Shown: positions 13,509-64,000, counted from the stretch's first letter. The stretch is DNA of 64,000 nt from a bacterium (GCA_037131125.1 JBAXRR010000001.1:7345-71344), one strand, 5' to 3'. The notes: a model not told the origin generated them from the sequence alone. A program made the numbers and translations.

Positions 13509-13512
13509 GAAG

Positions 13513-13845: not shown

Positions 13846-13846
13846 T

Positions 13847-14605: not shown

Positions 14606-14839
14606 TAAATTATTTGTTAAAAATAGATAGAAATATTGTAACTCCTTATATACTAAAGATCAACTTAGTGATAATACGATATAACTTCTTGAGCTTTACT
14701 TCTAGATTGAGGTCAGATAGATTGGTCAGTATAAATATCCTCTTTTGTGTTTTTAAGGTAAATGGGGATATAATCCAAATCTGGTTTACTTTAAATTAAT
14801 GTTGTTTTAATTTATATTCGAGTATACTTTGCCTGTTTT

Positions 14840-14857
14840 ACACTATATATATAGTGT
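14840..14857. promoter_or_regulatory. perfect 18-bp palindrome ACACTATATATATAGTGT in the divergent HTH-CYTH / topA intergenic region
   Basis: Self-complementary over 18 nt, about 30 bp upstream of the topA start and about 235 bp from the HTH-CYTH start. It is a candidate operator for a dimeric HTH protein. Confidence 0.4.
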
Positions 14858-14886
14858 GGAAATAAATAATATTTAAGAACAAGTTT

Positions 14887-17343: not shown

Positions 17344-17390
17344 TATAATTGCGATCAAACACTTAAAAATACGAAAATATGAAAAATATA

Positions 17391-17468
17391 ATGGCTTATA
17401 TCTTTAGTGCATCTATTATTCTGAGTATTTTGATTGTATTTCTTGTAGTTTTCTTTGCATCTAAATAA
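17391..17468 (+). CDS. possible 25-aa hydrophobic micropeptide (MAYIFSASIILSILIVFLVVFFASK)
   Basis: Short ORF in the topA-PBP intergenic region that encodes a single TM-like helix. No support beyond ORF integrity. Confidence 0.15.
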   Translation: MAYIFSASIILSILIVFLVVFFASK

Positions 17469-17536
17469 AATTATTCATCCTTTTTTTGTTACTAATTTGT
17501 ACGATATTAAGTTAAAATATCCATAAGACATTTATT

Positions 17537-42005: not shown

Positions 42006-45000
42006 TTAGAAATTGAATAGATTTCTAAGGCTATCCAGCAATAAGTTAGTTGCATCAGTTGAAGCTTTCGTAGTTATTGCAACAGTATTGCTAGATATTC
42101 CTGTGTTTTCAGCTTTATCTTTAGATACCGCTCTGAAATGATAGACCTTAGATGGTTCTAGATTTGAAATTACCACCATATGATTAGATGTTAGATTAAA
42201 GTCAGTAATAGATTTGGAAGGATATGTATCTGAATATCCCTCTCCAAATTCTACTGCAGAAGTTGCTGGTTCATCTGTATTCCAAGATACGATTATTTGT
42301 GCTTTTCCAGTACTGCTATTTGCTGTATTCTCTGCAACACTTTCTACAAGCATATCTGTAATTACAGGAGGTCTAGTATCTGATGCTGTAGTGAATTTAA
42401 CTATGTCAGATCTTGCTTCATTTCCAATTCTATCTTGTCCTTTTACAATTAGGTTATACAGTGTATCTGCTTTTAATCCGGATAATGTTATTTTATGTTC
42501 TCCAGATATTAATGCTAAGTTAACAGTATCTCTACTTTGGCTCGCTTTTCCATCTGGATAGTAAGTAACAATTGAACTTACTTCTGTATTAGACTGCCAA
42601 CTAATAATAATACTTGTCTCTGCAGTATTTTTTACTTGTTGTAACTTAACAGAGGAAACTCTTGGTCTTGGAAGTGTTTTGAAATCCAAAACAGTACCTT
42701 CATATTCTGTATTCTCAATGTCAAAAGGATTTACTCTGTAGTAATACTTAGTTCCGTCATCTAGACCGTCTAAGATTACCATGTACTTTGATTCATTATT
42801 ACTTGTTGGTAATTCTTGAAGTCCTCCAAATTGTGTAGATTTTCCATAATATATCTTTACCTTGTTTGCTCCAATTGAAGTGAATTGAATTCGAGCTGAG
42901 TTAGTTCCTACATTTACAACAGTTACATCTTTAACACTAGGAGCAGGTAATGTTTCAAAACTTTGTTCTGTAGATTCACCTAGGTTACCATCTTCATCAG
43001 TCCATCTTGCTTTGTAATAGTAAGTAGTTGAAGGAAGAAGATTTGTTAAATTAGTTACATGTTCAGTTACTTGTTTAGAATTTCCTGTATCGTCTGGGAA
43101 GTATTCACCTTGAGTAAGTCCATATACAATTCTGCTATCTGAATTTCTAGCTGTAACCCAAGAAATTGTTGCTCTTCTTGTCGTAATATTTGAAGTAACT
43201 GGACTAGATACTAATTCTGCAGGTACAGTATATGCTCCTTTTGGTGTAATACTTACAGATAATGAATAACTTGGACTTGCTTTGGATTCATCTGTGTTAT
43301 CCATACTTCCTACTCTGTAATAGTACTTCTTAGAAAGAGGTACTACGTCTACAAATGCAGTTCCATTCGTTTCAATTACTTTAGTCCAAGATGTTCCATT
43401 TTCAGATCTGTCTACTTCATAACTTAAAGCTCCAGTTCCTTTATATATAGGTTCATTCCATGCAAGAGATACACTCCAAAGACTTACACTCTTAATAGAT
43501 GTATCTGCAACTCTTAAATTTATTGCAGGATCTGGTAATGTAGAATTTAATGTAAATGTTTTAGATAGACCATTACTTCCTGAGTAGTTATTAAGATCGT
43601 CTATTGCCACTACATACACCCTATTTTGCCCTTTTACTGCACCAACAAGTTTACCTTCAGGTATTGAAGTACTTGTTGTAGGGATATATATTGTTGAATT
43701 ACTTAATATTGTACTTAAGAGATTTGGTGGAGTGGTGTTTATCATGTAGTAGTAAGATTTTAAGGATCTTCCAACAGATGGGACTGCTACTGGCCAAGAT
43801 AATGAGAAGCTATTAGTTGAGGATACAGATGGTGTAACAGTAATAGAAGATCCATCTGCAAACTTAGGAGCTTCTCCACCATATGAAATACTTGCTGTTC
43901 TACTTATTGTAGATAAATTACCCGCATTATCTAAAGCTCTGAAATATATTGTGTTATTTCCCATTTGAATCCTTGATGAGTCATTAGCAACACTTAAGTA
44001 GTAAGGTTGAGAATCACCAACAGGAATATATTTAACTCCAAGAGAAGCACTTGTATTACTTCCTGTCCAATTAGATTCACTATTAATAGAGTATTCGTAT
44101 CCAAGTAGTTGTGAGTTATTGTCAGAAGCTCCACTATTTCCACTTGTTGGCCAGTTGAAGTAGATATCGTCTACGTTTGAGAATGAATTTTGTGGTGTAG
44201 AGAAAGATGCAACATTTGTTGGTGGAAGATCATCATATTTGAATTCAAATGTTTCGGATGTTGGAAATGTGTTTCCTGCATTATCTAGTGCTTTAATGTT
44301 TAGATAGTATGGATTATTAGATGTTGTTAACCAAGTATTACCTCTTAGGGATAAATCACTAAAATCTATTTCATTAGTTCCTACAATAAACTGACAAGGC
44401 ATACCTATTGTACTTACTGGAGATGTACCCAATATTCCTTTAACAGATGTAGGATCGTCTGCTTGTGTCCCACTTAAAGATAAACAATATCCTTTTATTC
44501 CACTTCCTCCAACATTATCTACACCAAGGTCCCATCTAAAATATGGAGACTGATCATTTGTCCATCCAGTTTCTGAAACACTTCTTCCTTGTGCTGTGGT
44601 TTTCATACTTGTGTTAGCAGCATTAGTTGTTGGAGGAGTGTTATCTTCCACATAGTGAACTGACATCGTACTAATGCTTGGTGACGTAATTTGAGAAGCT
44701 GAATTTAATGTAGCTTTTATTTGAATATATTTTTGAGCTAATGCATTAATATTATAGTTAGGTGAAGTTCCAGAATTTGCAGTGTAGTTTGTCCATGTAT
44801 TTGCATCTGGACTTGTTCTAACATCATAACTTACTGTGTTTCCATTTAGAGATTCAGTTGTTACAAAGTTAGGAGATGTTCCCCACATTGCATTTGAATT
44901 AAGATTAATTACAGGAGATTCCCAGGTGCCTGTTGTTGTATATTTTCTTTGATCTGTTGTACTTTGTGAATAATTTGTAAGACTTTGATTATATAGGTCG

Positions 45001-48000
45001 GAAATCTGTGTTGATGTGAGTGCTTGATTAAATACTCTTAAGTCTGAAAGCATGCGAGTTGTATTACTTGAAATACCTCGAGAGAGAATAATACTTGAAA
45101 CAGTTGGAACAACTGAGTATGAGTTTGAAACTTTAAAAACTCCATCAAGATAAAATGATAATAGAGTTCCATTCCATGTTCCTACCCAGTTATGCCACTT
45201 ACCCTGTCCATATGTTGGCAAGCTTGTAAATGCTCCTGAACCACCAGTTCCTCTAATCTCAATTCCAGCTGAACCACAATCTTGCCCGAAATGAATATAG
45301 TTAGCACCGGAAGTATCTAATATTCCAGCATGAGCACCAGTACAACCAACATAGTAACTTGGGAACCAAATCCAAGCACTAATACTTCCAGAGCTTGCTG
45401 AAATATTTCCAGCTGACGGATAAACTATGTCACCTGCAGTTCTTATGCTTGTTGAGTTATTTTCTGTTCCACTCCATGTGTATCCAGGTCCTAAAGATCC
45501 ATCTACGTAACTTGTTGCGTATGCTTTTGCTTCAAGTTGAACACCATCAACATATATTATTTTATTTGATTTTATCTGAACTCCATAAAGAGCTGCCTGA
45601 TTAACTCCTGTTAAAGATCCAGTTAGCCTCCACCATCCTCCACCCATATCTGTATATGTTGTAGCAATTGTTGAAGTGTTGAAATATAGCTCTGCAATTG
45701 TATTACTTACAATTCCTCCAACATTTCCCGCTGTTCCATCGTAGACATAGCCACTTAATGTATTAGTTCCTGTATTTCCTACGTTAATATTAGTAGTTAC
45801 TTCATCTGTATATGAGCCACCATAATTTAATGCCATACTATTACTTCCAAATTTATAGTATGGCGCTACTGAATTTTGAGTCATAGATGCAGAATAGAAA
45901 CTAATGTATGTCCCATCTATTTGTCTTATTCCTCCCATGTAACTTCCCAAATATGCTGTCGTAAGTGCTGAGCTAAATGATGCTGGAATCGAAGTTGCAG
46001 TTATTCTATCTACTCCATTGACGGATACAATCATATTACCTCCACCTGAATATCGAACACCTATAACATATGTAGCACCTGCTGCAAAATCACCTACTGC
46101 ATTTGCATCATAAGTTGCCGTATTTGATACTCCATTCATTACATATTTCAAAGTTAATACATTTGCAACTGAGAAGTATAAATGTATTTCATTATTTGCA
46201 GTTCCATCTGAGATATATAGGATTCTAGGAGGTACACCATCTGCAAATTTAATTGCATTTGCAGCACTATGTCTTGGTGTAAATTTAAATTTAATACTTC
46301 CACTTGTAGTAGACATGCTGGAGACTGCTTGTGTTAAGGTATCTCCCCCATCTACTCTTAAACCAGTTGATTCTCCACTATTTGCTTGAGATGCTGGAGT
46401 AACTGTGAGTGAAATATTGTCCAACGTAAAATAGTACATATCGTCTGCATAACCATCTGTTGCGGTTAATCTGTGATCGTTAAATCCAGATGATGCATAT
46501 CTGTAAACACCTTTTAATAGACTCCAACTTCCTGTTCCACTAGTTGTTAAAGTTGTACTATTTGAGCCAGAGTTCAATATATATTTGCTACTCCAATATT
46601 TGTTAATTACTCCTGAGTTTGCATAAGCATACATTCCAAAGTCATAGAAATTTCCTGAAGTTGAAGCAGGTCTGGTGGGCATTATACAGTTACTTGAACT
46701 AGCACCAGATATTGCTAACTTAAGTGAATACTGTCCAGAATGAACAATGGAACTTGATAAAGATGTTGAGCCTGCAGGTAAAGTATTTATCCATCCATCC
46801 CATCCTGTTGGTAAAAGAGGATCTCCTGTTCCAGATTCCATGGATGGAGAAGACATGAGGTTAGGAAGTACTTCCACCTGATGCCAATAACATGTACCTG
46901 TTGCTACTGTATTAATTAATTGTACTTGTTCAGATTCAGCTGCAGGAGATGTCCATGTAAATATATATATATCTGGTGATGCTCTTGTACTAGTTTTTGT
47001 TCCTGTTAAGTGAGATATTTCAGTTGTTCCATCTGCTCTTGTTACTTTAACTTGAGGAGTACATGTTCCATCGCTATTTCCCAATGCCCTTAATACATAA
47101 TTTCCACCATTAGTTGCAGTAAATGTATTGTAAATTCCTTGCCCGATTCCTGTAGTTGTATATTTATATCCTCCTGGGTAGATCTTTTCAGATGTTGCTA
47201 ATGATGTAACATTGAATGATGAGGAAAGATTACCCATCGCTGCTGATACCGCAGCGATTTGTGGGGCAGACAATGTTGAGTTATATATTGCAATGGATTG
47301 TATCTTTATATTTGAATATTGTGCTGGACTTCCAGAGATATTTAATGCTGCAATGTAAAGTTCAGTATATCCTGAACCAGTTCCTGCAACAATGGTAGTA
47401 GGCTCAGCAATACCATTTCTGTAAGGAGTTTTTCCAGCAACTGCATATGTTCCTGCAGTAAGTACTGGAGTATTGACACCTGAAAATGAAGTTGTACCAT
47501 GGTAGCTATTCATTCCAGTATTATATGATTGCATTAATAATGAACCTGTTCCCCAAGTTCCAATAATTGTAGTTGATGCTGTTCCTGCGTATCCTGTGTA
47601 TGAAACAATAACTGTTGACGAATCAGTTGGAATAATTCCAGTTTTTAAATAATTAGATGTTCCATTAAATGTCCACCCATTAACGCTATCCCATGTCGGA
47701 GCCACTCCAACACTTGCATTATTTGTTCCAGGATTCGCTAGATTTATGTACGAATTAGCTAGGGAAGATGCGTTATATGGTTGATATGCTGCAACAACAT
47801 TTCCAGCTGATACTCCTCCAGCTAAATACCATGGTGTTTGTGATATAGCAGTAAATCCATCATTTGATGCAGTTCCATTCATCATATATCCACCAGTATT
47901 AGTTGTACTTGTATACAAAAGATTAGAACTATGAGGATGGCTCCATGCATTACCTGTACCACTAGCTAATGTTCCAGTAGAGGAATTAGTTGGAAGTGCA

Positions 48001-50243: not shown

Positions 50244-50290
50244 TTACATTGTATATTTAATATATTCCATATAGGAATATTTATGTTAAT

Positions 50291-50319
50291 AATATATATA
50301 AATATGAGGGTGATTACAA
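50291..50319 (-). promoter_or_regulatory. sigma70-like promoter of giant paralog A (TTGTAA-N17-TATATT)
   Basis: Minus strand reads TTGTAA tcaccctcatatttata TATATT, about 45 nt upstream of the ATG at 50243. The same architecture and spacer core TCACC(C/T)C recur upstream of paralog B. Confidence 0.45.
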
Positions 50320-50365
50320 ATTAATGTGTGGCGATTATCTCTTGCTCTGCTTGATAAATTGAAAT

Positions 50366-53300: not shown

Positions 53301-56300
53301 GTATATTTTTGTTGATTAGTACTTGCTTCTGTGTGTAAAACCAAACCCTGATTGTATAAATCGCTTATCTGATTTACTGTTAATGGCTGATTATATATTC
53401 TGAAATCACTTATTACTGAGTTGCTTAGTGAGCCACCATCTCTTCCAACATACATTGAAGTTGGTGTTCCTATTGGGGCAACATAGTTAGCAGTTGCTCC
53501 ACTTTGAACATTGTTGACATATATTTTCAAAGCTCCGTTTGTCCAAGTTGCTACAATGTGTTGCCATTGATTAGTTGAAATTGTAGGTGTTGCCCCATTG
53601 TATCCAGTACTTGCAACTACTCCTCCACTATATGCAAATGAGTAAATTCTTCTTGCAGGACTGCCATTGTCATAAAGAATATTGAAATAGTTTTGCCCAT
53701 CTATGACATATGAGAATATTCTTGAATAGTCATTTTGCCAACTTACGGGTTTAACCCATAAGGAAACACTGCCTGAAGTTTTATCTATATTTCCTACTGT
53801 TGAGTACTGTATATTACTTTCGTTCTTTGTTGTATTTGAATTGTTTGCAGTTCCTGTCCAGTTGTACCCTCCCGAAATAGGGAGTGAGCCATCTGCATAT
53901 GAGGTTGCGAAAGCTTTTCTTTCTAATTGAATACCATCTATATATACCAATTTTGTAGGTTTAACTTGTACTCCAAATGTTTGAGATGTTGTAACTCCAG
54001 TGAATGTTCCTGTAAGTCTCCACCATCCACCTCCCATGTCCGTATATGTTGATGTTAGTGGTTGTGAATTTGCAATAAGTGATAAATCTGTATTTGAAAT
54101 ACTTGCACCAGTTGTATATGCATATGCAGATAATGTATATGAAGTAGCAGTTAGAGTTAGAGGTGTAGTATATGTACTATCTAGTATACTTCCAGAGTTA
54201 TCTAGTTTTGCTGAAGCAGTTCCAAATTTAAAATATGGGCTTGTTGTATTTCTTGTTTTAGTTATTTGATCTGCTCCAAGAACTGTTACTCCATTTGCAC
54301 TAGATCCTGCAACAAGTGTAGGAAGTGTTCCTTGTCCTACTCCCCAAATAGCGATGGTATCATTGTTTAAAAGAGCTGGTGTTGTTGCCGAGGTATACGA
54401 AGCTATCATTGAATCTGAATCTGTATAGTCTCCTACTTTTCCATTTCTAATTACGCTAACTCCACCATTTGCTCCACTTGTTGCTATGTATATATATTTA
54501 TTATCACTACTTGTCCATACACCTTTTGTAATTGCACTTGTACCTGCAAGTTGTTGTGTAAATGAACTTTGTCTTGCAGCATTTCCTTTTGCATACATAT
54601 CTGCAACTTGAGTAGCAGTAACTGCGGTAACACCAATGAAAGGCTCATCTATTGTTCCTTGAAAATTACTTGTACCTGAAGTATTTGCTCCTATTATGAA
54701 TGGTTTGTTGTTGTCATTAGGGGCAGTTAAACTACCTGTTTTGTTTAAAGCACCATCTATGTATATATTTCCAGTAGTTCCGTTAGATGTGAACACATAT
54801 TGATGCCAATTTGTATCAGCAATTGTTGCAACACTAGTTAAAGAATTAATTCCACCATATATCCAGTTTATTGTATTGTCTGCATTAAAGTATGCACTAT
54901 ATCCTGTATTTGCTCCTCCAGATGTTCCTTTTGAAAACAGATTTTCAACAACTCCAGATCTTCCTCTTTTAGCCCAAAGTCCAACACTTAACTCTCCTGA
55001 ATATATTTGAAAATCTGTCTTTCTTACTTCAAAAGTATATGTTGTATCATTGTAGTTAAAACCAGATTCTATACTGGTCCAGTTTCTAACTGCTCCATTT
55101 CTTGTAGAAACAATATGTACTCCATCAATTTGAGTATCTGTTACTTCTTTTACGGATACTTCATCAAAATATGCAGTATCATTAAGATTAGAAGTTCCGG
55201 GTCCTAACCTAATATATGTAGTAGTTGCGTTTGCTACAAAATATCTTGTAAGAAGTGTCCAACTAGTACCACCGCTATATCCATAAGATATATTTTCATT
55301 TCCACCTTGAGAAGTTCCTGAATATATTGAATTGTTCCCGGTTCCGTTTTTTACATACATTGAAATTCTATACATCTTTCCAACTACTGTTGTAATGCTT
55401 TGATAAACATATCCATACGTACCACCTGATCCAATAGTTGTCTGTAATGCATTATTACTAAATCCTCCCGCAACACTTGCTCCTGTTCCTCCTGCAGCTG
55501 CTGTCCATCCTGTTGCATTAGTATCAAAAGTTCCATTTGTAATTAATTCACTCCCAACTGTTTCTCCAGATGAGTTATTTCCCATATATCCCCATGCAGC
55601 TTTTCCAGCACTATCTTTCATGGTGATAATAAATGGTGTGGCACTAGTATCATTTCCTTTGTATGAGGAAAGAATTGGAGAAGATAAAGGTTTAACAGAG
55701 ATATCATCAAATCTACAAGTTTTATTTAAGGATGAATTTGCTAAGGCAATAAAATGTGATCCGGTTAAGGTTGAAGTAAAGTAACCTGAAATATATGTCC
55801 AGCTTGTTGAACTAATTACAGGACTTGTATACATTGAGGAGTAATCCGTTTTTGTTACAGTTAGTGAGCAGATGGTCGAATCTATAGCTTTAATCCACCC
55901 AGTTACTTTATACACAGTTCCATAAGTGAGTGTTATGGCTTGACTTACTATCCAGCTATTTGTTCCTCCATATACTGCATCTATAGCTTTTGTTCCTGTA
56001 CCTCCTGGAGCCTGATCTGCTGCTGAAGTTACAGTACTTCCAGAACTTGCACTCCAAGTACTTGGTGGTGTTCCAGTTTCCATATTTCCATTTATAACTG
56101 TTTCACTTCCAAGTGTTTCCCCTGCTCTAATAAATGCCTGTCCATTTGCATAAGAAGCATTATTTGTTGCTGATCCCCAAGTTGCGCCAGTTTCTGTTAA
56201 ATATGTTTTTTCTTTTAAATAATCCCCTGTTCCATCAAACTTTAATCCACTTCCTCTAACAGCTCTTTCGTAATCAGCACTTTGAATTTCTGCACTTGCT

Positions 56301-59062
56301 CCACCTGATCCCCCCCATGGTCTTGTTGCATTCCCGACCGTTAATTCACTTTGAGTTGTTGTTCCATTGTAATTTGTGGAGGCACCACTTTGAATAACTG
56401 GGTTTATTCCTACCTCTCCATATAGTGGCCACATGCCTCTAATCTCCCCATACATTTCTTCAGTTATGAAATCTTTTCTATAAAACTTTACTGAACTTCT
56501 TGATTCATCCCCCTGTTTTTCTTGTATTACGGCTAAATTACCAGCATTCCCAGCTAAAGTTCTTTCTGATGCGACATATATTGTATTACTTGTCCCATCA
56601 ATTAAAGAAGTTCCTTCGTTTACAAAGAATTTATAGTTACCACTTTGTGAATCATATGGCTTTCCAAGTGATACAGATGTAGATGTTCCATATCCATAGT
56701 ATGGTCCCAGAGCAAAGTTATTAGTTTTGGATTGAATTGAATAAGTTCCATAAATTCCACCATTTGTTGGAGAATTATTAGGTGAAGGTAAGGCTAAGTA
56801 AAGTTCTCCTCTACTTGTTAACCAAACATAGTTAAATCTCATAACAGAAGCTGAATTTATTGCGGTTCCGTCAGTCTCATTAATTATTGTTGCACCTGCA
56901 TCAGTTCCGACTGCAACATATGTTTTCCCAGATATTACATTTGTATGAACTGCATAAACATAATTATTCATTATCTTAATATTTGTTCCTAAGTAGGAAG
57001 AAGAAAGTCCAGCGGCTCTTTGTGCAATTGTTCCTGAATATACCTGAGGAGAAGTACCATCATTCCAGTAATGAAGACCTGCTTCAGTTTTGAAGTTAAC
57101 GGAGAAAAGTCCACTATATGATGAAGATCCATTATCTCTTCCAATATATATTTCTCCATTTAATGCATATACCGAAGATATAATTGAAGCTGAATTTCCT
57201 CCAAGAAAACTTCCACCATTTGTTGAAAATCTCATCCACAACTTATTCTCAACTGCATCTATGACATCTAGATAACTAATACTTCCATTGTAACTAGCTA
57301 CTATGTATGACTTTTCAGGAAACTCTTGCTTTTTACCTCTAGTTGTTGAAAATGCTTCTGTATACCATGATTTAGATTGCGCGTTTGCATTATTTCTCCA
57401 TGCTCCACTATCCGAATCTTTTGTGGTGTCATAATAGAAAACATCTTTTATGTTATTTGCACCGATAAGTGTATTTCCATCTGCATCTGTTTGAGAAGAT
57501 GTGTAATTAAATGTATTTTTTCCATTCCAAGAAGTTGTAATGTCACTTTCAAAAGATGGATTAGGAATATAGTTAGTTGTACCTTCTTCAACAAGAATTC
57601 CTTGATGTGATGCATATGATTGTGATGGAACCTTTCCAATTTCCGTTGATGCAAAATCTATTCCAATAGTTCCACTTACATACTTAGCATTAGATATTGT
57701 TCCATTTAAACCATTTCCCGAGGCATCTAGTGCTTTCCCTGTGTTTCTTGGGTCATCCCCATTCTCATCAAAGTGATAAATAAGTTTTGTATTTGAATCT
57801 GCAATTATTATCTTTCCATTTCCAGAGTTGTATTGACCTAGTATTTCAGAATCTGAAAGTGCTCTATCATACATGACTACTTCATCCATTTGTCCTTTAA
57901 AAGGAACTGCACCGTCTGGCCTTCTTCCTAACATAAACTTAGAACCACTTGTTGGCAAGATATATGCAGTAGATATTGGAGTAGATGGGACAAGTACTCC
58001 ATTAATGTACATGTTTGCAGTTGTTCCACTAAATGTTCCAACTAGATGTATCCATTGATTCGTTTGTGAAAACGCATTATTCGCATATATTCTATATGCA
58101 GTTCCACCTCTAACAACTTGTACCATAAGTCTTCCACCACCAAGTAATATGTGAGCATTATTCTGGTTATCTACGAAATTACTTACAATTGTTTGATTAC
58201 TTATTGCATCTTGGAAATTAATCCACATTCCAACTGTAAAATCTCCTGACATATTAAGATTTGAACTTGATCCAGCATCTACGTAACTTGTTGATCCATT
58301 AAACGATAAAGCGCTCTTTGTTGAATATCTTAATGCTCCTGTTGCTACTGATGGGGTTTGAGCTGTTTCACAAGTTGTTGTTCCATTGAACGAACATACC
58401 ATAGTCGCTTGAGGTCCTCCCGGTATTGAATATCCATTTGTACCTTGAGCAGTTGCTCCTGAATTCCCATAATATAAAGCGTAGTTTGTTGTATCTGAAG
58501 ATCCTGAGGTTATATTTGCTTGAATTGGGAATGTAAGAATAGTTGCTTTTGAATCATTACAACCTGTAGATCCTAAATCTCTTTTAATGGTTATTGGTAA
58601 GTCTGTGTTGGATTGGTATATAACCCTTATGTCATTACAATTTGCAAGGACACTTTCAAGAGAAGAAGTATCTATGGTAATAGATACTGAACTTGTTGTA
58701 TTAAGTGTTGAACCAGAAGTATTTTTTATTGTTAGTTGTTTTTTGTAATTCCAATTCATACTAAACCAATTTGTGGATTTCCCAAGTGTAAGATTAGAAG
58801 CATTAGCAACTGTGTTTACAGATGTTCCAAGAGTGAAATTAGAATCTCCACCTTGAGCTATTGTGAAGTTTGTTTCATTTAGAGCCATAAGCTTAGGAAG
58901 TATTCCAGCTCCTCCAATTAATATACCAAGGCCTAATACAGAAACAGTAAAGACGTTAAGTTGCCACTTAATTAATGTGATTTTCTTAGTAAAGAAGAAT
59001 ATATATATCGAGTTTAAAACTCTTCTTGCTTTAATTCTAATTTTTGTAACTACATCATGCAT
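50366..59062 (-). CDS. giant surface protein (2898 aa), paralog B of the same family
   Basis: The first ~250 aa are about 70% identical to paralog A (FFTKKITLIKWQLNVF, NWNYKKQLTIKNTS, SVLANCNDIRVIYQ). The same LamG signature is present (LIYHFDENGDDPRNTGKALDASGNGLNGTISNAKYV). The central ~1000 aa are divergent. The C-terminal ~1200 aa are highly similar (YTDMGGGWWRLTG, FN3 cassette, ...LDLILKNIRGIFNF end). Confidence 0.7.
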   Translation of the reverse strand: MHDVVTKIRIKARRVLNSIYIFFFTKKITLIKWQLNVFTVSVLGLGILIGGAGILPKLMALNETNFTIAQGGDSNFTLGTSVNTVANASNLTLGKSTNWFSMNWNYKKQLTIKNTSGSTLNTTSSVSITIDTSSLESVLANCNDIRVIYQSNTDLPITIKRDLGSTGCNDSKATILTFPIQANITSGSSDTTNYALYYGNSGATAQGTNGYSIPGGPQATMVCSFNGTTTCETAQTPSVATGALRYSTKSALSFNGSTSYVDAGSSSNLNMSGDFTVGMWINFQDAISNQTIVSNFVDNQNNAHILLGGGRLMVQVVRGGTAYRIYANNAFSQTNQWIHLVGTFSGTTANMYINGVLVPSTPISTAYILPTSGSKFMLGRRPDGAVPFKGQMDEVVMYDRALSDSEILGQYNSGNGKIIIADSNTKLIYHFDENGDDPRNTGKALDASGNGLNGTISNAKYVSGTIGIDFASTEIGKVPSQSYASHQGILVEEGTTNYIPNPSFESDITTSWNGKNTFNYTSSQTDADGNTLIGANNIKDVFYYDTTKDSDSGAWRNNANAQSKSWYTEAFSTTRGKKQEFPEKSYIVASYNGSISYLDVIDAVENKLWMRFSTNGGSFLGGNSASIISSVYALNGEIYIGRDNGSSSYSGLFSVNFKTEAGLHYWNDGTSPQVYSGTIAQRAAGLSSSYLGTNIKIMNNYVYAVHTNVISGKTYVAVGTDAGATIINETDGTAINSASVMRFNYVWLTSRGELYLALPSPNNSPTNGGIYGTYSIQSKTNNFALGPYYGYGTSTSVSLGKPYDSQSGNYKFFVNEGTSLIDGTSNTIYVASERTLAGNAGNLAVIQEKQGDESRSSVKFYRKDFITEEMYGEIRGMWPLYGEVGINPVIQSGASTNYNGTTTQSELTVGNATRPWGGSGGASAEIQSADYERAVRGSGLKFDGTGDYLKEKTYLTETGATWGSATNNASYANGQAFIRAGETLGSETVINGNMETGTPPSTWSASSGSTVTSAADQAPGGTGTKAIDAVYGGTNSWIVSQAITLTYGTVYKVTGWIKAIDSTICSLTVTKTDYSSMYTSPVISSTSWTYISGYFTSTLTGSHFIALANSSLNKTCRFDDISVKPLSSPILSSYKGNDTSATPFIITMKDSAGKAAWGYMGNNSSGETVGSELITNGTFDTNATGWTAAAGGTGASVAGGFSNNALQTTIGSGGTYGYVYQSITTVVGKMYRISMYVKNGTGNNSIYSGTSQGGNENISYGYSGGTSWTLLTRYFVANATTTYIRLGPGTSNLNDTAYFDEVSVKEVTDTQIDGVHIVSTRNGAVRNWTSIESGFNYNDTTYTFEVRKTDFQIYSGELSVGLWAKRGRSGVVENLFSKGTSGGANTGYSAYFNADNTINWIYGGINSLTSVATIADTNWHQYVFTSNGTTGNIYIDGALNKTGSLTAPNDNNKPFIIGANTSGTSNFQGTIDEPFIGVTAVTATQVADMYAKGNAARQSSFTQQLAGTSAITKGVWTSSDNKYIYIATSGANGGVSVIRNGKVGDYTDSDSMIASYTSATTPALLNNDTIAIWGVGQGTLPTLVAGSSANGVTVLGADQITKTRNTTSPYFKFGTASAKLDNSGSILDSTYTTPLTLTATSYTLSAYAYTTGASISNTDLSLIANSQPLTSTYTDMGGGWWRLTGTFTGVTTSQTFGVQVKPTKLVYIDGIQLERKAFATSYADGSLPISGGYNWTGTANNSNTTKNESNIQYSTVGNIDKTSGSVSLWVKPVSWQNDYSRIFSYVIDGQNYFNILYDNGSPARRIYSFAYSGGVVASTGYNGATPTISTNQWQHIVATWTNGALKIYVNNVQSGATANYVAPIGTPTSMYVGRDGGSLSNSVISDFRIYNQPLTVNQISDLYNQGLVLHTEASTNQQKYTTSGTWESPVINLNSNAQWGLTPNFVTTETLNGNTTSYEVRTSPDGNTWNSYSANTGNYPNYAIASQAQKYIQIRATLNSPGQVTTPVVSGLSIHYVQDTTAPITNAANTAMKSTTTGRDISETNWTNDPSPYFRWDLGADNVGGSGIKGYCLSLSQTLSDDPASQKGLLGTSPISTVGYTCQFIVGTNEIDFANSALKGNTWLSASNSPYYLNIKAIDNTGNTYPTSETFEFMYDDIPPTNVNSFSTPQNSFANVDDIYFNWPASGNGVASDSNSQLLGYQYSINSESNWTGSDTSSVLGLNYIPLGHSQPYYLTIANDASRIQMGSNTIYFRALDVAGNRSSISRTASVSYGGEAPKFTDGSSITITPLTSEINNFSVSWPEAVASSGRTVSKYYYMINTAPPTTLDTILNNSSIYIPTENLSIPASALGGVIKGTNTIYVVAIDDLNNYSGSNSLSKSFTLNSNIPDPVKNLTVSDASVKSASLWRASLAWEVPEYKGTGILTYVVNRSEDGINWVKVTETSGLAYVDIVPSSKKYYYRVGSMDNTDLSRANPSYALSVNITPKGSYTTPAELISNPVTSDITTKRAIVTWVTARNSDSKISYGLESGKYFEAETSISTQTTSHVIPLTNLQPSTTYYYIAKWTDEDGNTGKSNEQTFTTSPAPEIKDVVVKFVNTNSAQIQFTTKGASKVKIYYGKSTQFGSLQELPTSVNESKYTVVLDGLEDGMKYYYRINPYDIEDTEYEGTVLDLKTLQKPKVSDIKLQQIKNTAETSILISWTSNTEITSMITYYPEGKIEQSRDSVNLNLLVGSHQMTLTGLMPDVSYSLVVRGLDKVGNEARSDIVKFTTASDTRPPVITDLLVETYPSDTSATGGNKTAQVIVSWKTDEPATSQIEYGDGNTDIYKYKTPEDGNLNVNHVVIISNLEIAKIYHLVAVSKDKASNISKSQDIVTITANTQDNALDLILKNIRGIFNF

Positions 59063-59109
59063 ATTCGCGTGTTTGTACTAATCGTAAATAGATACAAATA
59101 TACGAATAT

Positions 59110-59138
59110 AATATATAGAAAATGGGAGGTGATTACAA
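59110..59138 (-). promoter_or_regulatory. sigma70-like promoter of giant paralog B (TTGTAA-N17-TATATT)
   Basis: Minus strand reads TTGTAA tcacctcccattttcta TATATT, about 48 nt upstream of the ATG at 59062. It duplicates the paralog A promoter. Confidence 0.45.
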
Positions 59139-59166
59139 ACTTAAAAATATTAAATCTAGCAAGTGA

Positions 59167-61119
59167 TTACTCGTACTTCAGAGCAGATAGTGGAGATATT
59201 TTTGCAGCTCTTCTAGATGGATATATTCCTGTAAGAATTCCTACTAAAAGAGATATAACTGCAACGAATAAAACTAACTCTATTGGTATCCTTGTAAGTT
59301 CAAATGGATCTGATATTTGAACAATAGAAAGAACAGATAATATGAAACTTACTAATTTACCAAATAGGAATCCGAATAGAAGACCAGATAATCCTCCATA
59401 GAATCCAATAGAAAGAGATTCTATGAGGAATAAGTCTCTTATTTCTCTCTTACCCATACCCATAGTTTTAAGAAGTCCTACCTCTCTTGTTCTTTCAAGA
59501 AGCGAAACTGTAAGTGTATTAAACATACCAACAGCAGATACTAGAAGTGCCATTAATCCTAGTAACAGAAGAACTAATTTAACTGTTTGGAATACACTAT
59601 CTATTTGAGCAATAACATCTAGAACTGATGTTGTTGAGAAACCACTGGTTTCTATACTCTTTCTAAGTGTGTTAACAATTTCTTTTGAAGAAGCTATTAC
59701 TTTTAAGTTTGTATAACTATTAAGTCCAATAGGTTTGAGATCTGAAAGTGGTACATATATAGATGGTGATGGAAGTTCATCATTAATTACTGCAACAATT
59801 GTGTATGTGTCAGCAATTGTTGTTTGTTTCTGATTCTCTCCTGTATCTGTTCTTGTAAAGAATACAAAGGATACAGATATAGTTTTGTTTAATGCGCCAT
59901 TTTCTGGAATATTCATTATCTTTAAAAAGTCCTTGTTTACAACAGCTTTTTTAGTAGCTTTAATTGGAAGTTTAGATGCAGGAATCTCTTTTACTGTCTG
60001 ATCTGGCGTAGATAAATCTATTAAGTCTAATGTACCAAGAACACTAGGTGTATCCTCAACAGAAATTAAACTATTAGCTGGAATATATCCATCTTTAGAT
60101 ACTTGCTCACCCTTCTTATCTTTCTGAACAACAAATTTTTTGTCTATACAAGATTTAGAATTCGTTAAGCAATCTTTGTTAGTCCAGAGAACAAAGTTAG
60201 ATTTGACCCATCTTTCAATACTATCTCCATTTAATGCCTTAGATGGTATTTCAGAATCTTTCTTATCTGAATACTTACTTCCCCAAAGAGATGTTCCACT
60301 TTGAGTATCTGTTACTCTTTTTGTAAAACCAATAACTTCAGAAGTTGTGTCCGGAGATCCGTATACTTTAATCCATTTTTGAGGAAGGAGTGAAAATGAA
60401 ATTTCATTAACTTTATTTGGATCAATATTCTTACTCTGGTCGTCTTGCACACCTTTAACATTTGAAGATGGATTAACTGCTTCGTTTTCTTCAAATATTT
60501 TTCCTTCTGTAATTTTAGAAGACAAAATATTTAAGTATGCAGATGTTACTGCATATGTTGGAACATCTGTTATAGAGTTATTGTTATTAACTTTAGATAC
60601 AACACTTGCAATTGGAAATACATTTTCTACTCCACTTATTGCTTTAACATTTTGTACTGAATTGTCATTCAGGGGGATCTTATCTCCCCTTCTTGGATAT
60701 ACATCTACTTGTTTCATTTCATCTAAGTTAGCAATTCTTTTGGTAATAGAATCTTGTACTCCATAACCAACCGAAAGAAGGAATACAACTGAACCTATAC
60801 CTATCATGAGGCCAAAAATCGTTATATATACCCTAGATTTTTTTGAGATTGTGTTTTTTGATGCAATTTCAAGTAATTCAAGTTTTGGAATATTTTTTCC
60901 TGTATTGGAATCAATCTTTAATGCAAATACAGAATATATTTTATATATTCCATCTGAAATACGTTGAATAAAGTTTAGTTTGGTAATTTTTGAAAGTTCT
61001 GTGAATAAATAGCAGATTACTTTTGTAATGACAAAGGTAACAAAGAGGATGTTAATAAGTGCAACGTTAGCGATGTAATCCAATAAACGATAAGGTATTA
61101 AAACAATCTTTTTAAACAT
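59167..61119 (-). CDS. MacB/FtsX-type ABC transporter permease with a large extracytoplasmic domain
   Basis: The N-terminal TM (FGLMIGIGSVVFLLSVGYG) precedes a ~400-aa extracytoplasmic region. The C-terminal FtsX domain has three TM helices (TREVGLLKTMGMGKREIRDLFLIESLSIGFYGG). 650 aa. Confidence 0.75.
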   Translation of the reverse strand: MFKKIVLIPYRLLDYIANVALINILFVTFVITKVICYLFTELSKITKLNFIQRISDGIYKIYSVFALKIDSNTGKNIPKLELLEIASKNTISKKSRVYITIFGLMIGIGSVVFLLSVGYGVQDSITKRIANLDEMKQVDVYPRRGDKIPLNDNSVQNVKAISGVENVFPIASVVSKVNNNNSITDVPTYAVTSAYLNILSSKITEGKIFEENEAVNPSSNVKGVQDDQSKNIDPNKVNEISFSLLPQKWIKVYGSPDTTSEVIGFTKRVTDTQSGTSLWGSKYSDKKDSEIPSKALNGDSIERWVKSNFVLWTNKDCLTNSKSCIDKKFVVQKDKKGEQVSKDGYIPANSLISVEDTPSVLGTLDLIDLSTPDQTVKEIPASKLPIKATKKAVVNKDFLKIMNIPENGALNKTISVSFVFFTRTDTGENQKQTTIADTYTIVAVINDELPSPSIYVPLSDLKPIGLNSYTNLKVIASSKEIVNTLRKSIETSGFSTTSVLDVIAQIDSVFQTVKLVLLLLGLMALLVSAVGMFNTLTVSLLERTREVGLLKTMGMGKREIRDLFLIESLSIGFYGGLSGLLFGFLFGKLVSFILSVLSIVQISDPFELTRIPIELVLFVAVISLLVGILTGIYPSRRAAKISPLSALKYE

Positions 61120-61238
61120 TCCTATTCCTGCTTTACGTATGTAAATATGTGAGTTAAGTTTTTAAACTTTCACTAATACAATTTACTATTTTTTAAGAAA
61201 GATTGGAAATATATTCGAGGATACCGTCCTTATTATTC

Positions 61239-62951
61239 TTACATTTGTTTTCCTAATGTAATTACTTCTCCTCCAACATTTTTAGCAAAGTAACTATCAT
61301 GGGAGACATATATTACAGCACCTTTATACTCGGCTAACATATTCTCAAGTTCTTCAATTGAAGGAAGATCAAGATGGTTAGTTGGTTCATCTAGGATAAT
61401 GAGATTTGGATTGTTTATCATCATTTTTATGAATTGAATTCTACTTTTTTGTCCTCCTGACAGATTAATATATTTGGTATCCCCATCTATTATTGGATCA
61501 AAAAGATAATTTGAAAGTACTACATTTACTTTCTGTTTGTTTATTGGAATCCTTGCATCTGTGTACAGTTTGAAGATAACATCAGATAGTGTAAGGGAGA
61601 ATATATCTAGCTTATCATCAGGATGGGATTTCAATTCTTGTTCATAAACACCTATTCTAATATTTTTATCAAATTCAACTATTCCATCAAAGTACTTTAT
61701 GCCTGTATTCTCATGAACTAAATCAACTATTCCTAATTTATGAAGATTAATGACGAAGTTTAGAAATGTCGTTTTACCTTGCCCATTTCTTCCTCTGATT
61801 TGAAGTTTCTTTCCACCATCAAGTCTTACATTTAATCCTTTGAATAAAGGATCTGAGTATCCAATAGATAGATTTTTTATCTTGATAAGATCATATATAT
61901 TAATATCTGTTCTTCTATCCATTTCAAAGAGTCGGAATCTAATTTCACGAGATTTAAACTCTGCATACTTCTCTTTCATTTTCTTATCTAAGTTTCCAAC
62001 ACTTTCTTTATCTATCCAAAATTCTGGATCATTAAGATTAGCTCTTGCATCGTCATAGAGTTTCTTGTATTTCATCTCCCTTATCTTTGCAGATGTTCTA
62101 GATCCGTCTGAGTGAGCAGATAGCTTCATTTCTTTAGCAACTATCATCTGTTTTCTATATTGCTCTATTTGTTTCAAATCTACTTCATGCTCATGTACTT
62201 CAGATACGATATTTACAGAATTAATCTTAAGATATTTTTCATAGTTTCCCTTGAAGTCTTTAATTTCATCTGAAGTAAGCTCTAGTATTCTATCTACTTC
62301 ATGCAGAACATCTCTATCATGGGATATGATGAATAAGGCTTTTTTATAATCTCTCATCCAATTTAGAAAATTGGCTTTTGCATAAATGTCTAAGTGATTA
62401 GTTGGTTCGTCAAGTATCGCTAAATCTGCTTTTGCATATTCGACTCTTAATAGTTCTACAAATCTTTTTTGTCCTCCTGAAAGTTTTGATATTGGAGATA
62501 ACATCTGATCAATAGTCATTCCAAGCTTATGGAATTTAATACCTATATCATCGGCCATTTCAGAATATGACAAACTATGCCATTCGTTTATAGAATCTGA
62601 ATATATTTGTATTTCATTAAGATCATGAGTTGGATTAGCTTCATATCCTTTTATCTTTCCTTCCAGTTCCCTATACATAGGAACAGAGTCGAGAATATAG
62701 TCTAATGGTGTTAAACTTTCATTTCCAATGAACTCTTGTTTGGTAACAATAACCTTAATACCCTTTCGAATGTTTAGTTCTCCAACATATTCTTTATCTT
62801 TTCCTTCAATAATTCCTGCTAAAGTAGTTTTACCTATTCCATTTCTACCTATTAAAGCACATTTTTCAAACTCTTCAAGTTGAAAAGAGACGTTTTCAAA
62901 TAGCTTTTTTACCCCTATTTCTTTTTTTATATTCGATAACTGAACTAGCAT
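61239..62951 (-). CDS. ABC-F family ATPase (two NBDs joined by a charged linker; translation-factor type, not a transporter subunit)
   Basis: The two Walker A motifs are GRNGIGKTTL and GRNGQGKTTF. The two signature plus Walker B regions are LSGGQKRFV...ILDEPTNHLD and LSGGQKSRI...ILDEPTNHLD. A ~80-aa Lys/Arg-rich inter-domain linker and the absence of a TMD are typical of EttA/Uup/YbiT-type proteins. Confidence 0.8.
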   Translation of the reverse strand: MLVQLSNIKKEIGVKKLFENVSFQLEEFEKCALIGRNGIGKTTLAGIIEGKDKEYVGELNIRKGIKVIVTKQEFIGNESLTPLDYILDSVPMYRELEGKIKGYEANPTHDLNEIQIYSDSINEWHSLSYSEMADDIGIKFHKLGMTIDQMLSPISKLSGGQKRFVELLRVEYAKADLAILDEPTNHLDIYAKANFLNWMRDYKKALFIISHDRDVLHEVDRILELTSDEIKDFKGNYEKYLKINSVNIVSEVHEHEVDLKQIEQYRKQMIVAKEMKLSAHSDGSRTSAKIREMKYKKLYDDARANLNDPEFWIDKESVGNLDKKMKEKYAEFKSREIRFRLFEMDRRTDINIYDLIKIKNLSIGYSDPLFKGLNVRLDGGKKLQIRGRNGQGKTTFLNFVINLHKLGIVDLVHENTGIKYFDGIVEFDKNIRIGVYEQELKSHPDDKLDIFSLTLSDVIFKLYTDARIPINKQKVNVVLSNYLFDPIIDGDTKYINLSGGQKSRIQFIKMMINNPNLIILDEPTNHLDLPSIEELENMLAEYKGAVIYVSHDSYFAKNVGGEVITLGKQM

Positions 62952-63041
62952 ATATCAATATAGATATGGGAAATTAAGTAGCAGGATATATATTACCATA
63001 TATATGGCTAATACTTCATAGAGGAAATAGCTAAATAAGAC

Positions 63042-63383
63042 TTATAATGAGAATTGTACTGCTGATTCTTGTCTAATAGGACAACCAGTTAATATTCGTT
63101 CTACTGGAGTGCCTTCAAGCTTACATCGTTTGCACATCCAAGTTACAAATAAATATGAAGTTTCTTTCCCAAAAACTTCAGTGTATTCGAGTAAAGTAGC
63201 AGATACTTCTTTAATAACAGGACATTGGCAATAAGCAGTTTGTATATCATCAACAAATGGTGAAACTTCAAAGCAAGTTAATGAATCTCCTTCTGGATGA
63301 ATTGCAGTTACTTTTCCGAAATCTTTTTCCAGTTTTGCAACTTTTATTCTTGTACCGTCAAATTCACTAACAAAACTTTCCAT
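63042..63383 (-). CDS. Cys-rich FmdE/FwdE-like domain protein
   Basis: CFEVSPFVDDIQTAYCQCP parallels the FmdE core VETDGCGVDAIQVLTGCTFG. A C-terminal CKRC...GCP is a zinc-ribbon-like cluster. 113 aa. Confidence 0.35.
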   Translation of the reverse strand: MESFVSEFDGTRIKVAKLEKDFGKVTAIHPEGDSLTCFEVSPFVDDIQTAYCQCPVIKEVSATLLEYTEVFGKETSYLFVTWMCKRCKLEGTPVERILTGCPIRQESAVQFSL

Positions 63384-63447
63384 AATGGGAAGGTAAAATA
63401 TTAATGCCCCAGATTATATTCTTATCCTTAAATTATGCAAAAAATAA

Positions 63448-64000
63448 TTAGAATCCGAAGATGTTTCTTAAGTTTTTAACTATTAAATCGAGAGCGTTAT
63501 CGTTAGGATTTGGAGTAATGGATACCTGATCTACTGATTTATCTTCATTACCTGCTTTATCTGAAGATATAGCTCTTAAGTGGTAGATCTGACTTGCACT
63601 TAAGTTAGAGATTATTACAACATGATCAGTCTTAAGATTATTGTCTTCTGGTGTTTTGTAATTGTATACATCTCCAGTATTCTCTCCATACTCTACTCTT
63701 GAAGAAGCTGGTTCATCTGTTTTCCAACTAACTATTATTTGTGTAGTCTTTTTTCCACTTACAGTATCTGTTACATCAGAAGGAGAAGCTTCCACAGATA
63801 CTTCAGATATGGAAGGTGCTCTTGTATCTGTTGCTGTTGTGAATTTGATTATGTCTGATCTTGCTTCGTTACCTATTCTATCTACTCCTTTTACTACTAG
63901 GTTATATGTAGTATCTGGAAGTAATCCAGTTAGAGTTATCTTGTGTGCTCCTTTTTCAAGATTAATATTTACTGAATCTCTACTTAAGTTAATCTTATTC
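63448..64000 (-). CDS. giant surface protein paralog C, C-terminal end only (gene continues beyond the window)
   Basis: The last 115 aa (..QIIVSWKTDEPASSRVEYGENTGDVYNYKTPEDNNLKTDHVVIISNLSASQIYHLRAISSDKAGN...ALDLIVKNLRNIFGF) align with the C-termini of paralogs A and B. The frame stays open upstream of the track's internal Met to position 64000. Nucleotide similarity to 50590-50900 and 42240-42560 is about 75-80% by eye. Confidence 0.65.
   Translation of the reverse strand, partial: NKINLSRDSVNINLEKGAHKITLTGLLPDTTYNLVVKGVDRIGNEARSDIIKFTTATDTRAPSISEVSVEASPSDVTDTVSGKKTTQIIVSWKTDEPASSRVEYGENTGDVYNYKTPEDNNLKTDHVVIISNLSASQIYHLRAISSDKAGNEDKSVDQVSITPNPNDNALDLIVKNLRNIFGF

Follow-up and report, generated by a model that had tools for sequence, protein, structure and literature searches.

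Giant predicted lectin-type proteins of a Patescibacteria bacterium carry a C-terminal stalk-and-helix cassette linked to a type VII ABC system

We analysed a 64,000-nt window of bacterial DNA (GCA_037131125.1 JBAXRR010000001.1:7345-71344; positions are counted from its first letter), in which the interval 42006-64000 carries three giant paralogous genes, here called A, B and C, and a permease gene of the MacB/FtsX type. An initial annotation made from the sequence alone had described a tandem array of three co-oriented giants, of 2745 and 2898 aa and a third cut by the window edge. Open reading frames (ORFs) of exactly these two sizes were found on the minus strand, 122 bp apart, and C is indeed a paralog truncated by the edge, but it is not adjacent to B. 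Three other genes separate the two, and the order in the window is C, a 113-aa ORF (orf113), an ATP-binding cassette (ABC) gene of the ABC-F type, the permease, B and A. The whole interval makes up 34% of the window; A, B and the C fragment themselves take 27%, less than the third that had been estimated for the giants.

A is identical to a database protein (P0001) annotated as 'LamG-like jellyroll fold domain-containing protein', and B and C lie on the same 124-kb contig of a metagenome-assembled genome. Beyond the window edge C proved to be a real gene, encoding 3105 aa at full length (P0003, at 8949-18266 of the extended locus L001). The extended locus reads: an unrelated giant (>1769 aa), His_Phos_1, a LolD-like ABC ATPase (225 aa), a MacB_PCD/FtsX permease (649 aa), C, orf113, ABC-F, the 650-aa permease, B, A and MurB. 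For orf113 no family match was found in Pfam, NCBIfam or PHROGs.

Related loci were searched with a 17-sequence alignment, one genome per GTDB species. We obtained 58 of them, and all their labels are Patescibacteria-type or obviously automatic, including Woese-, Roizman-, Dojka-, Shapiro-, Collier-, Ames-, Gottesman- and Chisholmbacteria, WWE3 and CPR3. The closest named relatives of the ThrRS encoded in the window belong to candidate division WS6/Dojkabacteria (65-66% identity), some of them on 0.87-0.9 Mb contigs. On the ThrRS relatives and the 58 loci together, the source organism is classified as a Patescibacteria (candidate phyla radiation, CPR) bacterium, Dojkabacteria-like, which agrees with the small-genome bacterium that had been proposed.

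In BLASTP comparisons A and B align at both ends, with 52% identity over residues 1-522 and 62% over the C-terminal ~1300 aa. Both matches far exceed chance, and none was detected between the middles. The C fragment is 63% identical to the end of B and 53% to the end of A, and full-length C matches A over residues 1-1067 (49%) and over the C-terminal ~1350 residues (63%). The features first listed as common to all three giants are seen within the window in A and B, since the window part of C excludes the leader, the laminin G (LamG) domain and the motifs. Three motifs are present in both A and B, namely (L/I)YHFDENGDDPRNTGKA (aa 428), NPSFE (aa 501) and YTDMGGGWWRLTG (A 1530, B 1673). C carries the variants LYHLDENGDDPRNAGKA and YTDMGGGWWRLNG, so the motif that had been called invariant is not strictly so.

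The two ends of the giants indicate how they may sit at the cell surface. Across the family, the N-terminus has a hydrophobic segment followed by (V/I/L)-x-A and, after the predicted cut, L-x-E-(T/S), which fits the -3/-1 rule of signal peptidase I. Several orthologs, P0059 and P0015 among them, have short textbook signal peptides, e.g. MKRRISLKSKVERIWLLVFVVLIFTKPVFA cut before LTES. The N-terminal segment is thus probably a cleavable signal peptide and not an anchor, and the family-wide cleavage-type site speaks against the membrane-anchored stalk that had been suggested. If the signal peptide is cleaved, the lectin head would be distal, and the C-terminal cassette of fibronectin type III (FN3) repeats with its helix would form the cell-proximal end.

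This helix is amphipathic, 18-20 residues long, and follows the last FN3 repeat. It is of the type A(F/L)D(L/I)I(I/L)KNLEDVFGF(LKL), with the consensus ALDLIxKNLxxxFGF, and wherever a complete protein with the cassette adjoins an ABC/FtsX gene pair, it forms the very C-terminus. Endings in the source lineage are ...NALDLILKNIRGIFNF, ...NALDLIVKNLRNIFGF and ...ATNLLLDSLRNLFNF, with a hydrophobic moment of 0.33-0.52. A, B and C themselves terminate in ...LRNLFNF, ...IRGIFNF and ...LRNIFGF.

The permease encoded upstream of B scores 72.8 bits against Pfam FtsX (PF02687) and 60.3 bits against MacB_PCD (PF12704). Having an FtsX C-terminal transmembrane domain and a MacB periplasmic core, it is classed as a type VII ABC (MacB/FtsX-like) permease. 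Its extracytoplasmic domain, at ~400 aa, is roughly double the usual size. In NCBIfam it matches LolCE, MacB and ADOP best, with scores that fall far short of the equivalog cut-offs (88 versus 362 for lolCE, 85 versus 966 for MacB; for FtsX 24-30 versus 225-255), so the protein is a member of the superfamily and not an ortholog of LolCE, MacB or FtsX. Its closest relatives in the PDB are YtrF, MacB, LolC/E/F and YbbP. The second permease, upstream of C, shares 40% identity with it. The 570-aa ABC protein was considered as the ATPase of this transporter and ruled out, being ABC-F-like over its full length. Its best full-length match is NF000355, a ribosomal-protection-like ABC-F (305 bits versus a cut-off of 380), its identity to the LolD-like ATPase upstream of C is only 22-27%, and it is probably a translation factor.

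The initial annotation did not mention a conserved partnership with a MacB/FtsX-type ABC system. We called ORFs in all fetched loci, built hidden Markov models of the local permeases, of the ATPases and of three sections of the giant, and counted a giant as linked when a MacB_PCD/FtsX permease lay within 2 kb on the same strand. A permease adjoins 18 of the 20 giants with the C-terminal cassette and none of the 17 complete head-only relatives, which are mostly WWE3-type (Fisher p = 1.2e-8). The two exceptions are a locus cut by the contig end (L042) and one whose giant lacks the C-terminal helix motif (L046). Between the cassette-bearing giant and the permease there is usually an ABC ATPase of ~260 aa, and start and stop codons often overlap among the giant, ABC and permease genes (e.g. 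L005, L012, L016, L019, L023).

The link also holds for other heads and in the opposite direction. Giants with Kelch/beta-propeller heads and the same immunoglobulin-like (Ig)/FN3 tail adjoin the ABC/FtsX pair as well (L003 1..6972, L005 22649..28580, L019 1..6711), and those that are complete have the terminal helix too. The Ig/FN3 tail therefore seems to be portable and able to carry different heads. In a reciprocal test we started from permease homologs of the same enlarged size (34-41% identity), and all four directly follow an ABC ATPase and a helix-ending giant, here FN3/Pur_ac_phosph_N proteins of 1430-2059 aa. Throughout the family, genes with the stalk-plus-helix cassette are linked to those of a type VII ABC ATPase-permease pair.

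Two further loci are recorded here for their gene content. At L068 (7056..11584) a fibre-ABC-permease trio is followed by genes resembling type IV secretion system (T4SS)/conjugation functions: a TrbC/T4SS pilin, a TraC-like protein, a VirB4-like ATPase and an M23 peptidase. The fourth giant ORF of the extended locus (L001 2..5311, plus strand) lies upstream of C, outside the window, and is cut by the locus end. BLASTP shows no relationship of this ORF to A, B or C; it has only a weak MopE-like metal-binding motif and is without the C-terminal helix motif.

The domain content of A and B was determined with Pfam scans of whole proteins and 400-aa tiles (gathering cut-offs 27.6 bits for PF13385, 25.9 for PF02018 and 23.4 for PF10102) and with hhalign profile-profile comparison of sub-alignments from 17 orthologs. 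Laminin_G_3 (PF13385) of the ConA-like superfamily reaches 98 bits in whole A and 197 bits in whole B, with two stretches above threshold in A and three in B. By hhalign, A contains four related LamG-like domains (250-412, ~557-735, 1290-1470 and 1595-1758; 94-96% probability, 94% for residues 557-735). It also contains three related Ig-like repeats (1870-2240) and four FN3 repeats mutually related at 96-99%, with a fifth, weaker one (2240-2745). From the N-terminus, A consists of the signal sequence, a DUF2341-like sandwich, LamG1, the conserved core, LamG2, an A-specific LamG-like insert, carbohydrate-binding-module (CBM)-like modules and LamG3, then the YTDMGGGWWRL block, LamG4, three Ig-like domains, ~5 FN3 repeats and the C-terminal helix. 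The DUF2341 assignment (PF10102, A 141-210) lies below its cut-off at 12.5 bits and E 0.21, and some distant relatives carry PF10102. The C-terminal repeats pass the gathering score (Pur_ac_phosph_N 47-78 bits, fn3 30-50 bits), and B has the same tail as A. The ~5 FN3-type repeats first described at the ends of both were found by Pfam tiles and hhalign alike.

The CBM4_9-like modules of the initial annotation stood in part, as B passes the Pfam threshold on a tile and A stays below it. CBM_4_9 is absent from whole-protein scans of both at E <= 0.01 and was seen on tiles only. A CBM4_9-like reading of A 1005-1132 and of A 1470-1595 (the YTDMGGGWWRL block) was dropped, having no hhalign support. 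The other 'NPSFE-type' blocks gave nothing beyond a 9-column match to CBM_4_9, and the YTDMGGGWWRLTG block had no hhalign link to other modules at >=50% probability.

Structure prediction agrees with the binding-type folds that had been proposed and that Pfam finds as LamG_3, CBM_4_9 and fn3. The AlphaFold model of A 60-800 has a mean predicted local distance difference test (pLDDT) of 56 and three confident beta-sandwiches, at A 104-204, 249-414 and 579-749, and leaves the most conserved motif regions at low confidence. Its Foldseek matches are laminin LG pairs, neurexin LNS domains, pentraxins, carbohydrate-binding proteins or modules and lectin domains of toxins or sialidases, with no enzyme among them. 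The family profile retrieves LamG-type and FN3-type chains only from the PDB and adds nothing for the conserved core, and single-sequence PDB searches with A and B give weak FN3/LamG matches. The middle of B comprises a probable beta-propeller, two CBM_4_9 stretches and an extra LamG. For B 523-1000, where Pfam gives no match, the AlphaFold model is poor (8 sequences, mean pLDDT 42), four-strand sheets repeat in it, and its top Foldseek matches are all propellers at low TM-score. We assign a beta-propeller here tentatively. No enzyme domain was detected in A or B by Pfam, hhalign, AlphaFold with Foldseek, or the family profile against the PDB.

The giants are thus beads-on-a-string arrays of ~20 beta-sandwich binding modules, with four or five LamG, three Ig-like and ~5 FN3 domains. 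They are very probably extracellular, as indicated by the export signal at the N-terminus, by invariant cysteines in that part of the protein and by an acidic composition rich in Ser, Thr, Asn and Gly. In line with the first impression that no named adhesin family fits, no NCBIfam model names them.

The architecture of A is widely conserved. Four orthologs (P0016, P0018, P0019, P0026) cover 97-100% of it at 35-40% identity, with 40-47% across the A middle, and the full architecture is kept at 35-47% identity across Microgenomates-type Patescibacteria. The B middle (aa 523-1602) is common to P0063, P0065, P0011, P0062 and P0059 at 31-46% identity. Since the middles of A and B have orthologs elsewhere, the paralog types are old, and the tandem duplication with divergent middles that had been suggested is not supported.

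Along A, the mean identity versus 16 orthologs varies strongly between regions (Table 1) and looks like variable binding cassettes set in a conserved frame. The earlier idea of diversified binding specificity fits the variable LamG/CBM cassettes, which places the diversification at the level of cassettes and not of whole middles. The conserved core at A 405-800 carries the motifs HFDENGDDPRNTGKA, EEGTTN, NPSFE, WITPEWNGND, YRR, GSWDIVFALPTN and AWSHPH. Family-wide, the conserved segments show HFDENGDD, EEG, NPSFE, WxTPEWNGND, YRR, GSWDVVFALPTN, AWSHPH and YTDMGGGWWRL. The core is rare, with 489 cluster representatives at E <= 1e-3 and 223 at E <= 1e-30 among 1.84 billion.

Part of the core also occurs on its own. 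Many shorter proteins of ~750-1270 aa, several per Roizmanbacteria genome, begin at the module equivalent to A 518-800 and align to A 518-1446 (P0254-P0373; L014, L017, L040, L043, L045), without the tail or an ABC neighbour.

Upstream of A, B and C lies a common block of ~35 nt (for C at L001 ~8880-8930) with the hexamers TTGTAA or TTGTCA and TATATT 17 nt apart. This suggests that each paralog may have its own, similar promoter. Overall, the promoter and terminator scans gave no enrichment over shuffles.

Table 1. Positions of the giant genes, their domains and motifs, and adjoining genes in the window, with regional conservation along A (mean identity versus 16 orthologs).
Feature	Residues	Position (nt)	Strand	Evidence and remarks
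Giant paralog A		42006..50243	-	2745 aa ORF; identical to P0001
A N-terminus, probable Sec signal peptide	1-60	50064..50243	-	Basic leader, ~22-residue hydrophobic segment, site between ILA and ANET
A LamG_3 domain 1	256-406	49026..49478	-	Pfam 52-55 bits; AlphaFold pLDDT 65-78; ortholog identity 0.15-0.23
A conserved core	405-800	47844..49031	-	Includes LamG-like domain 2 (aa ~557-749)
A CBM_4_9-like module, sub-threshold	1146-1250	46494..46808	-	PF02018 E 1.6e-3, 19.3 bits
A YTDMGGGWWRLTG motif	1530-1542	45618..45656	-	Inside conserved block aa ~1470-1595
A LamG_3 domain 4	1609-1748	45000..45419	-	Pfam 44.3 bits; ortholog identity 0.18-0.27
A C-terminal cassette 'gC'	1760-2745	42009..44966	-	Discoidin-like module, three Ig-like, ~5 FN3/Pur_ac_phosph_N; Pfam, hhalign
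A weak Ig-like signal	~1972-2003			Pfam
A FN3/Pur_ac_phosph_N repeats	2350-2745			Pfam
A C-terminal amphipathic helix motif STDATNLLLDSLRNLFNF		42009..42062	-	
A conservation, Pfam-visible LamG	251-400			Mean identity 0.15-0.23
A conservation, unannotated	401-600			Mean identity 0.53-0.63
A conservation, unannotated	701-800			Mean identity 0.62-0.72
A conservation, unannotated	1051-1150			Mean identity 0.58-0.67
A conservation, Pfam-visible CBM	1151-1250			Mean identity 0.21-0.24
A conservation, unannotated	1501-1600			Mean identity 0.59-0.66
A conservation, Pfam-visible LamG	1601-1750			Mean identity 0.18-0.27
Promoter-like element upstream of A, TTGTAA-17-TATATT		50291..50319	-	Consensus scan; block conserved
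Giant paralog B		50366..59062	-	2898 aa ORF
B LamG_3 domain 1	255-407	57842..58300	-	Pfam 94.9 bits on tile
B-specific module, tentative beta-propeller	523-1000	56063..57496	-	AlphaFold, Foldseek
B CBM_4_9	987-1100	55763..56104	-	PF02018 41.2 bits on tile, two stretches
B LamG_3	1351-1487	54602..55012	-	Pfam 66.1 bits
B LamG_3	1748-1900	53363..53821	-	Pfam 67 bits; PDB match to AbnA domain 4
B C-terminal amphipathic helix motif QDNALDLILKNIRGIFNF		50369..50422	-	
Promoter-like element upstream of B, TTGTAA-17-TATATT		59110..59138	-	Consensus scan; block conserved
MacB_PCD/FtsX-type permease		59167..61119	-	650 aa; 104 bp upstream of B
ABC-F double-ATPase		61239..62951	-	570 aa; two ABC_tran domains
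Cys-rich ORF between C and the ABC-F gene (orf113)		63042..63383	-	113 aa; predicted gene in both public contigs with the cluster
Giant paralog C, 3' end		63448..64000	-	Last 183 codons, frame open to window edge; last FN3 domains and terminal helix

We propose that the giants are exported, fibre-like lectin arrays, held at the membrane by their C-terminal helix together with a type VII ABC partner, and that they bind glycans. We regard this proposal as moderately likely. The protein would be exported by Sec and its signal peptide probably cleaved. The C-terminal helix would then hold it at the membrane, most likely docked on the enlarged extracytoplasmic domain of the permease. Carried outward on the stalk of Ig-like and FN3 domains, the variable lectin head would bind glycans of a partner cell or of polymer particles, and A, B and C would display different heads on one tail. 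The ABC motor might pass an ATP-driven conformational change or force to the fibre. Alternatively, it might extract the helix and release it from the membrane, as LolCDE does with lipoproteins.

Glycan adhesion is plausible. E. coli PBP5 is a precedent for the retention of a periplasmic protein through a C-terminal amphipathic helix. We infer the docking on the permease by analogy, because characterised type VII ABC systems have dedicated extracytoplasmic partners and FtsX binds partner helices. Four papers describe the pairs FtsEX-EnvC, LolCDE-LolA, MacAB-TolC and YbbAP-TesA (PMC12646458, PMC7668044, PMC6355983, PMC5985334), and three of them the attachment of known partners to the extracytoplasmic domain through helices (PMC7668044, PMC6355983, PMC12646458). 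In the case of FtsX these are helices of EnvC, PcsB or RipC. Concanavalin-type lectin proteins have been proposed in general terms for the attachment of Patescibacteriota (PMC12911398).

A bolder version, which we offer as a tentative and somewhat doubtful possibility, treats the trio of the Ig/FN3-stalked fibre with the ALDLIxKNLxxxFGF helix, the LolD-like ATPase and the enlarged-domain permease as an envelope machine of Patescibacteria that has not been described before. ATP would power the extension, retraction, release or stepping of interchangeable lectin- or Kelch-headed fibres on a partner cell, and the near-invariant core motifs (HFDENGDD, EEG, WSHPH) would form a functional site.

Several points weigh against the helix-held fibre. 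In A, B and C the hydrophobic segment of ~22 residues follows a 35-residue leader, which is more than signal peptides usually have and may point to an uncleaved signal anchor. The permease upstream of B adjoins the ABC-F gene and has no dedicated ATPase, the only LolD-like ATPase of the cluster lies upstream of C, outside the window, and gene A is without a permease of its own. The most conserved segments of A (405-560, 750-800, 1050-1150 and 1500-1600) match no known fold in the PDB profile search, several are modelled by AlphaFold at low confidence, and an activity concealed in them might call for a different reading. From the adjacency of the genes a functional link can be concluded, not the kind of link. 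Dojkabacteria are not known to be episymbiotic.

The giants might instead serve in feeding, as glycan-capture scaffolds whose arrays bind soluble or particulate polysaccharide from plant, algal or microbial debris, like surface glycan-binding proteins or non-catalytic cellulosome-like scaffolds. LamG_3 and CBM_4_9 are mostly accessory modules of glycoside hydrolases, the best matches include domain 4 of the arabinanase AbnA and a Bacteroides carbohydrate-binding protein, and no host is known. However, A, B, C and nearly all relatives have no catalytic domain, and the cluster contains no glycoside hydrolase or sugar importer. We consider feeding unlikely; it differs from our proposal only in the target, and the present data do not separate the two.

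Less probable still is an adhesin anchored in the membrane by its N-terminus, with the FN3 cassette distal and the ABC/FtsX neighbours functionally unrelated. The long basic leader and hydrophobic segment of A, B and C are compatible with such a type II signal anchor. The conserved -3/-1 cleavage-type site and the short textbook signal peptides of several orthologs argue against it. So does the ABC/FtsX linkage, which follows the C-terminal cassette in both directions and involves overlapping genes. Moreover, a conserved stalk at the distal end with variable heads near the cell would be unusual for an adhesin.

We also considered a structural envelope or S-layer-like coat whose assembly is aided by the ABC system, and we find it slightly more improbable than the N-terminal anchor. 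The scaffold is very strongly conserved, an 'S-layer domain-containing protein' of the PDB is among the LamG matches, and each paralog has its own conserved promoter-like element. Nevertheless, whole-protein and tile Pfam scans found no SLH or other known wall-binding domain, and a string of ~20 domains with hypervariable lectin cassettes, in three heads on one tail, is easier to reconcile with a fibre than with a lattice.

Phages do encode large LamG/FN3 proteins, and those of Patescibacteriota have concanavalin-like genes (PMC12911398), but the chance that the giants are tail-fibre or receptor-binding proteins of a prophage is negligible, as A and B have no PHROGs match at E <= 1e-3, the flanking genes (MurB, MutL, ThrRS, PheST, ClpP, TopA and a penicillin-binding protein) are all cellular housekeeping, in keeping with the absence of phage genes noted at first, and the same genes adjoin ABC/FtsX in different chromosomal contexts of many genomes.

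Three other candidates were rejected. The giants are not sortase (LPXTG) substrates, since the last 100 residues of A, B and C contain no LP.[TSA][GAN] motif and there is no hydrophobic C-terminal segment or charged tail. An RTX substrate of a type I secretion system was dismissed because A, B and C contain 0, 0 and 1 GG.G.D motifs, respectively, no locus has a HlyD-type gene and the ABC system is of the MacB/FtsX type. A target of a diversity-generating retroelement was set aside, as the scanned window ORFs include no reverse transcriptase and 41-64 kb contains no notable repeats; template/variable repeat pairs were not searched specifically.

The rest of the window encodes housekeeping functions, namely ATP synthase a, AsnB, ClpB/C, TopA, a class A penicillin-binding protein, PheST, IF3, ThrRS, ClpP, MgsA, MutL, a PAS-GGDEF protein and MurB. 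The PAS-GGDEF diguanylate cyclase (39388..40773, minus strand; GGDEF 145 bits) is encoded downstream of the giant cluster, two genes away and past MurB, and a CHASE4-PAS protein is found near one related locus (L069). In other bacteria, cyclic di-GMP signalling governs the retention of giant adhesins, and by analogy a regulatory link of the PAS-GGDEF protein to the giants is conceivable. In the class A penicillin-binding protein (17537..20734, plus strand; 1065 aa) the transglycosylase and transpeptidase domains end near residue 700 and are followed by an unannotated C-terminal extension of ~360 aa. Another four ORFs, encoding 255-443 aa, are without a Pfam match at E <= 1e-5: 3050..4381 and 29248..30015 on the minus strand, 8312..9460 and 32225..33118 on the plus strand.

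The domains themselves and the adhesin idea for lectin-type CPR proteins are already known from the literature. There we found general statements on lectin-type surface proteins of Patescibacteriota and no description of a giant family with variable cassettes, of the C-terminal helix motif or of the MacB/FtsX linkage. What is known of how ultra-small Patescibacteria recognise partners and stay attached to them comes largely from a few cultivated Saccharibacteria, and the cluster is a concrete and widely conserved candidate. A, B and C take ~26 kb, roughly 3% of a genome the size of the relatives' ~0.9 Mb contigs. If the link between the helix and the MacB/FtsX system is real, the type VII ABC 'mechanotransmission' family would gain a fifth kind of partner, and single-membrane bacteria a new C-terminal signal by which surface proteins are retained or handled. 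Both the helix motif and the gene trio lend themselves to simple searches of any genome.

Among known systems, the modelled head is structurally closest to the LG arrays of laminin alpha, the LNS arrays of neurexin and the pentraxins, tandem LamG jelly rolls that are classically calcium- and glycan-binding. The similarity is at the fold level only (7-17% identity), and organism and context are unrelated. The giant genes of Omnitrophota and the large surface proteins of DPANN and CPR symbionts are likewise very large, multi-domain and extracellular, and come from ultra-small, probably host-dependent prokaryotes (10.1101/2023.11.21.568195), but they are much larger or differently built. RTX adhesins (LapA, SiiE, MpIBP) resemble A, B and C as giant, repeat-built proteins with lectin-type tips, an uncleaved C-terminal signal and an ABC transporter encoded in the operon. 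Here, however, there are no RTX repeats, the ABC system is MacB/FtsX-type and not HlyB-type, the N-terminal signal is Sec-type, and there is no membrane-fusion or outer-membrane component. Patescibacteria are single-membraned.

Mycoplasma mobile, a wall-reduced bacterium with a tiny genome, encodes the giant surface proteins Gli349 and Gli521 side by side; at least one of them binds host glycans, and an ATP-driven motor is involved. That motor is F1-ATPase-like and not an ABC system, and the analogy is functional only. Sortase-anchored adhesins of the MSCRAMM type share with the giants a signal peptide, an N-terminal binding head, a stalk of Ig/FN3-like repeats and a C-terminal retention signal, although the tail here is an amphipathic helix tied genetically to an ABC system instead of sortase. 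The type VII ABC systems are alike in having a permease with the FtsX C-terminal domain and the MacB periplasmic core, a LolD/FtsE/MacB-like ATPase and a partner in the same operon. In the present family, where the link is a genetic one, the putative partner is an Ig/FN3-stalked fibre of 1,400-4,000 aa and not a hydrolase activator, chaperone, duct or lipase.

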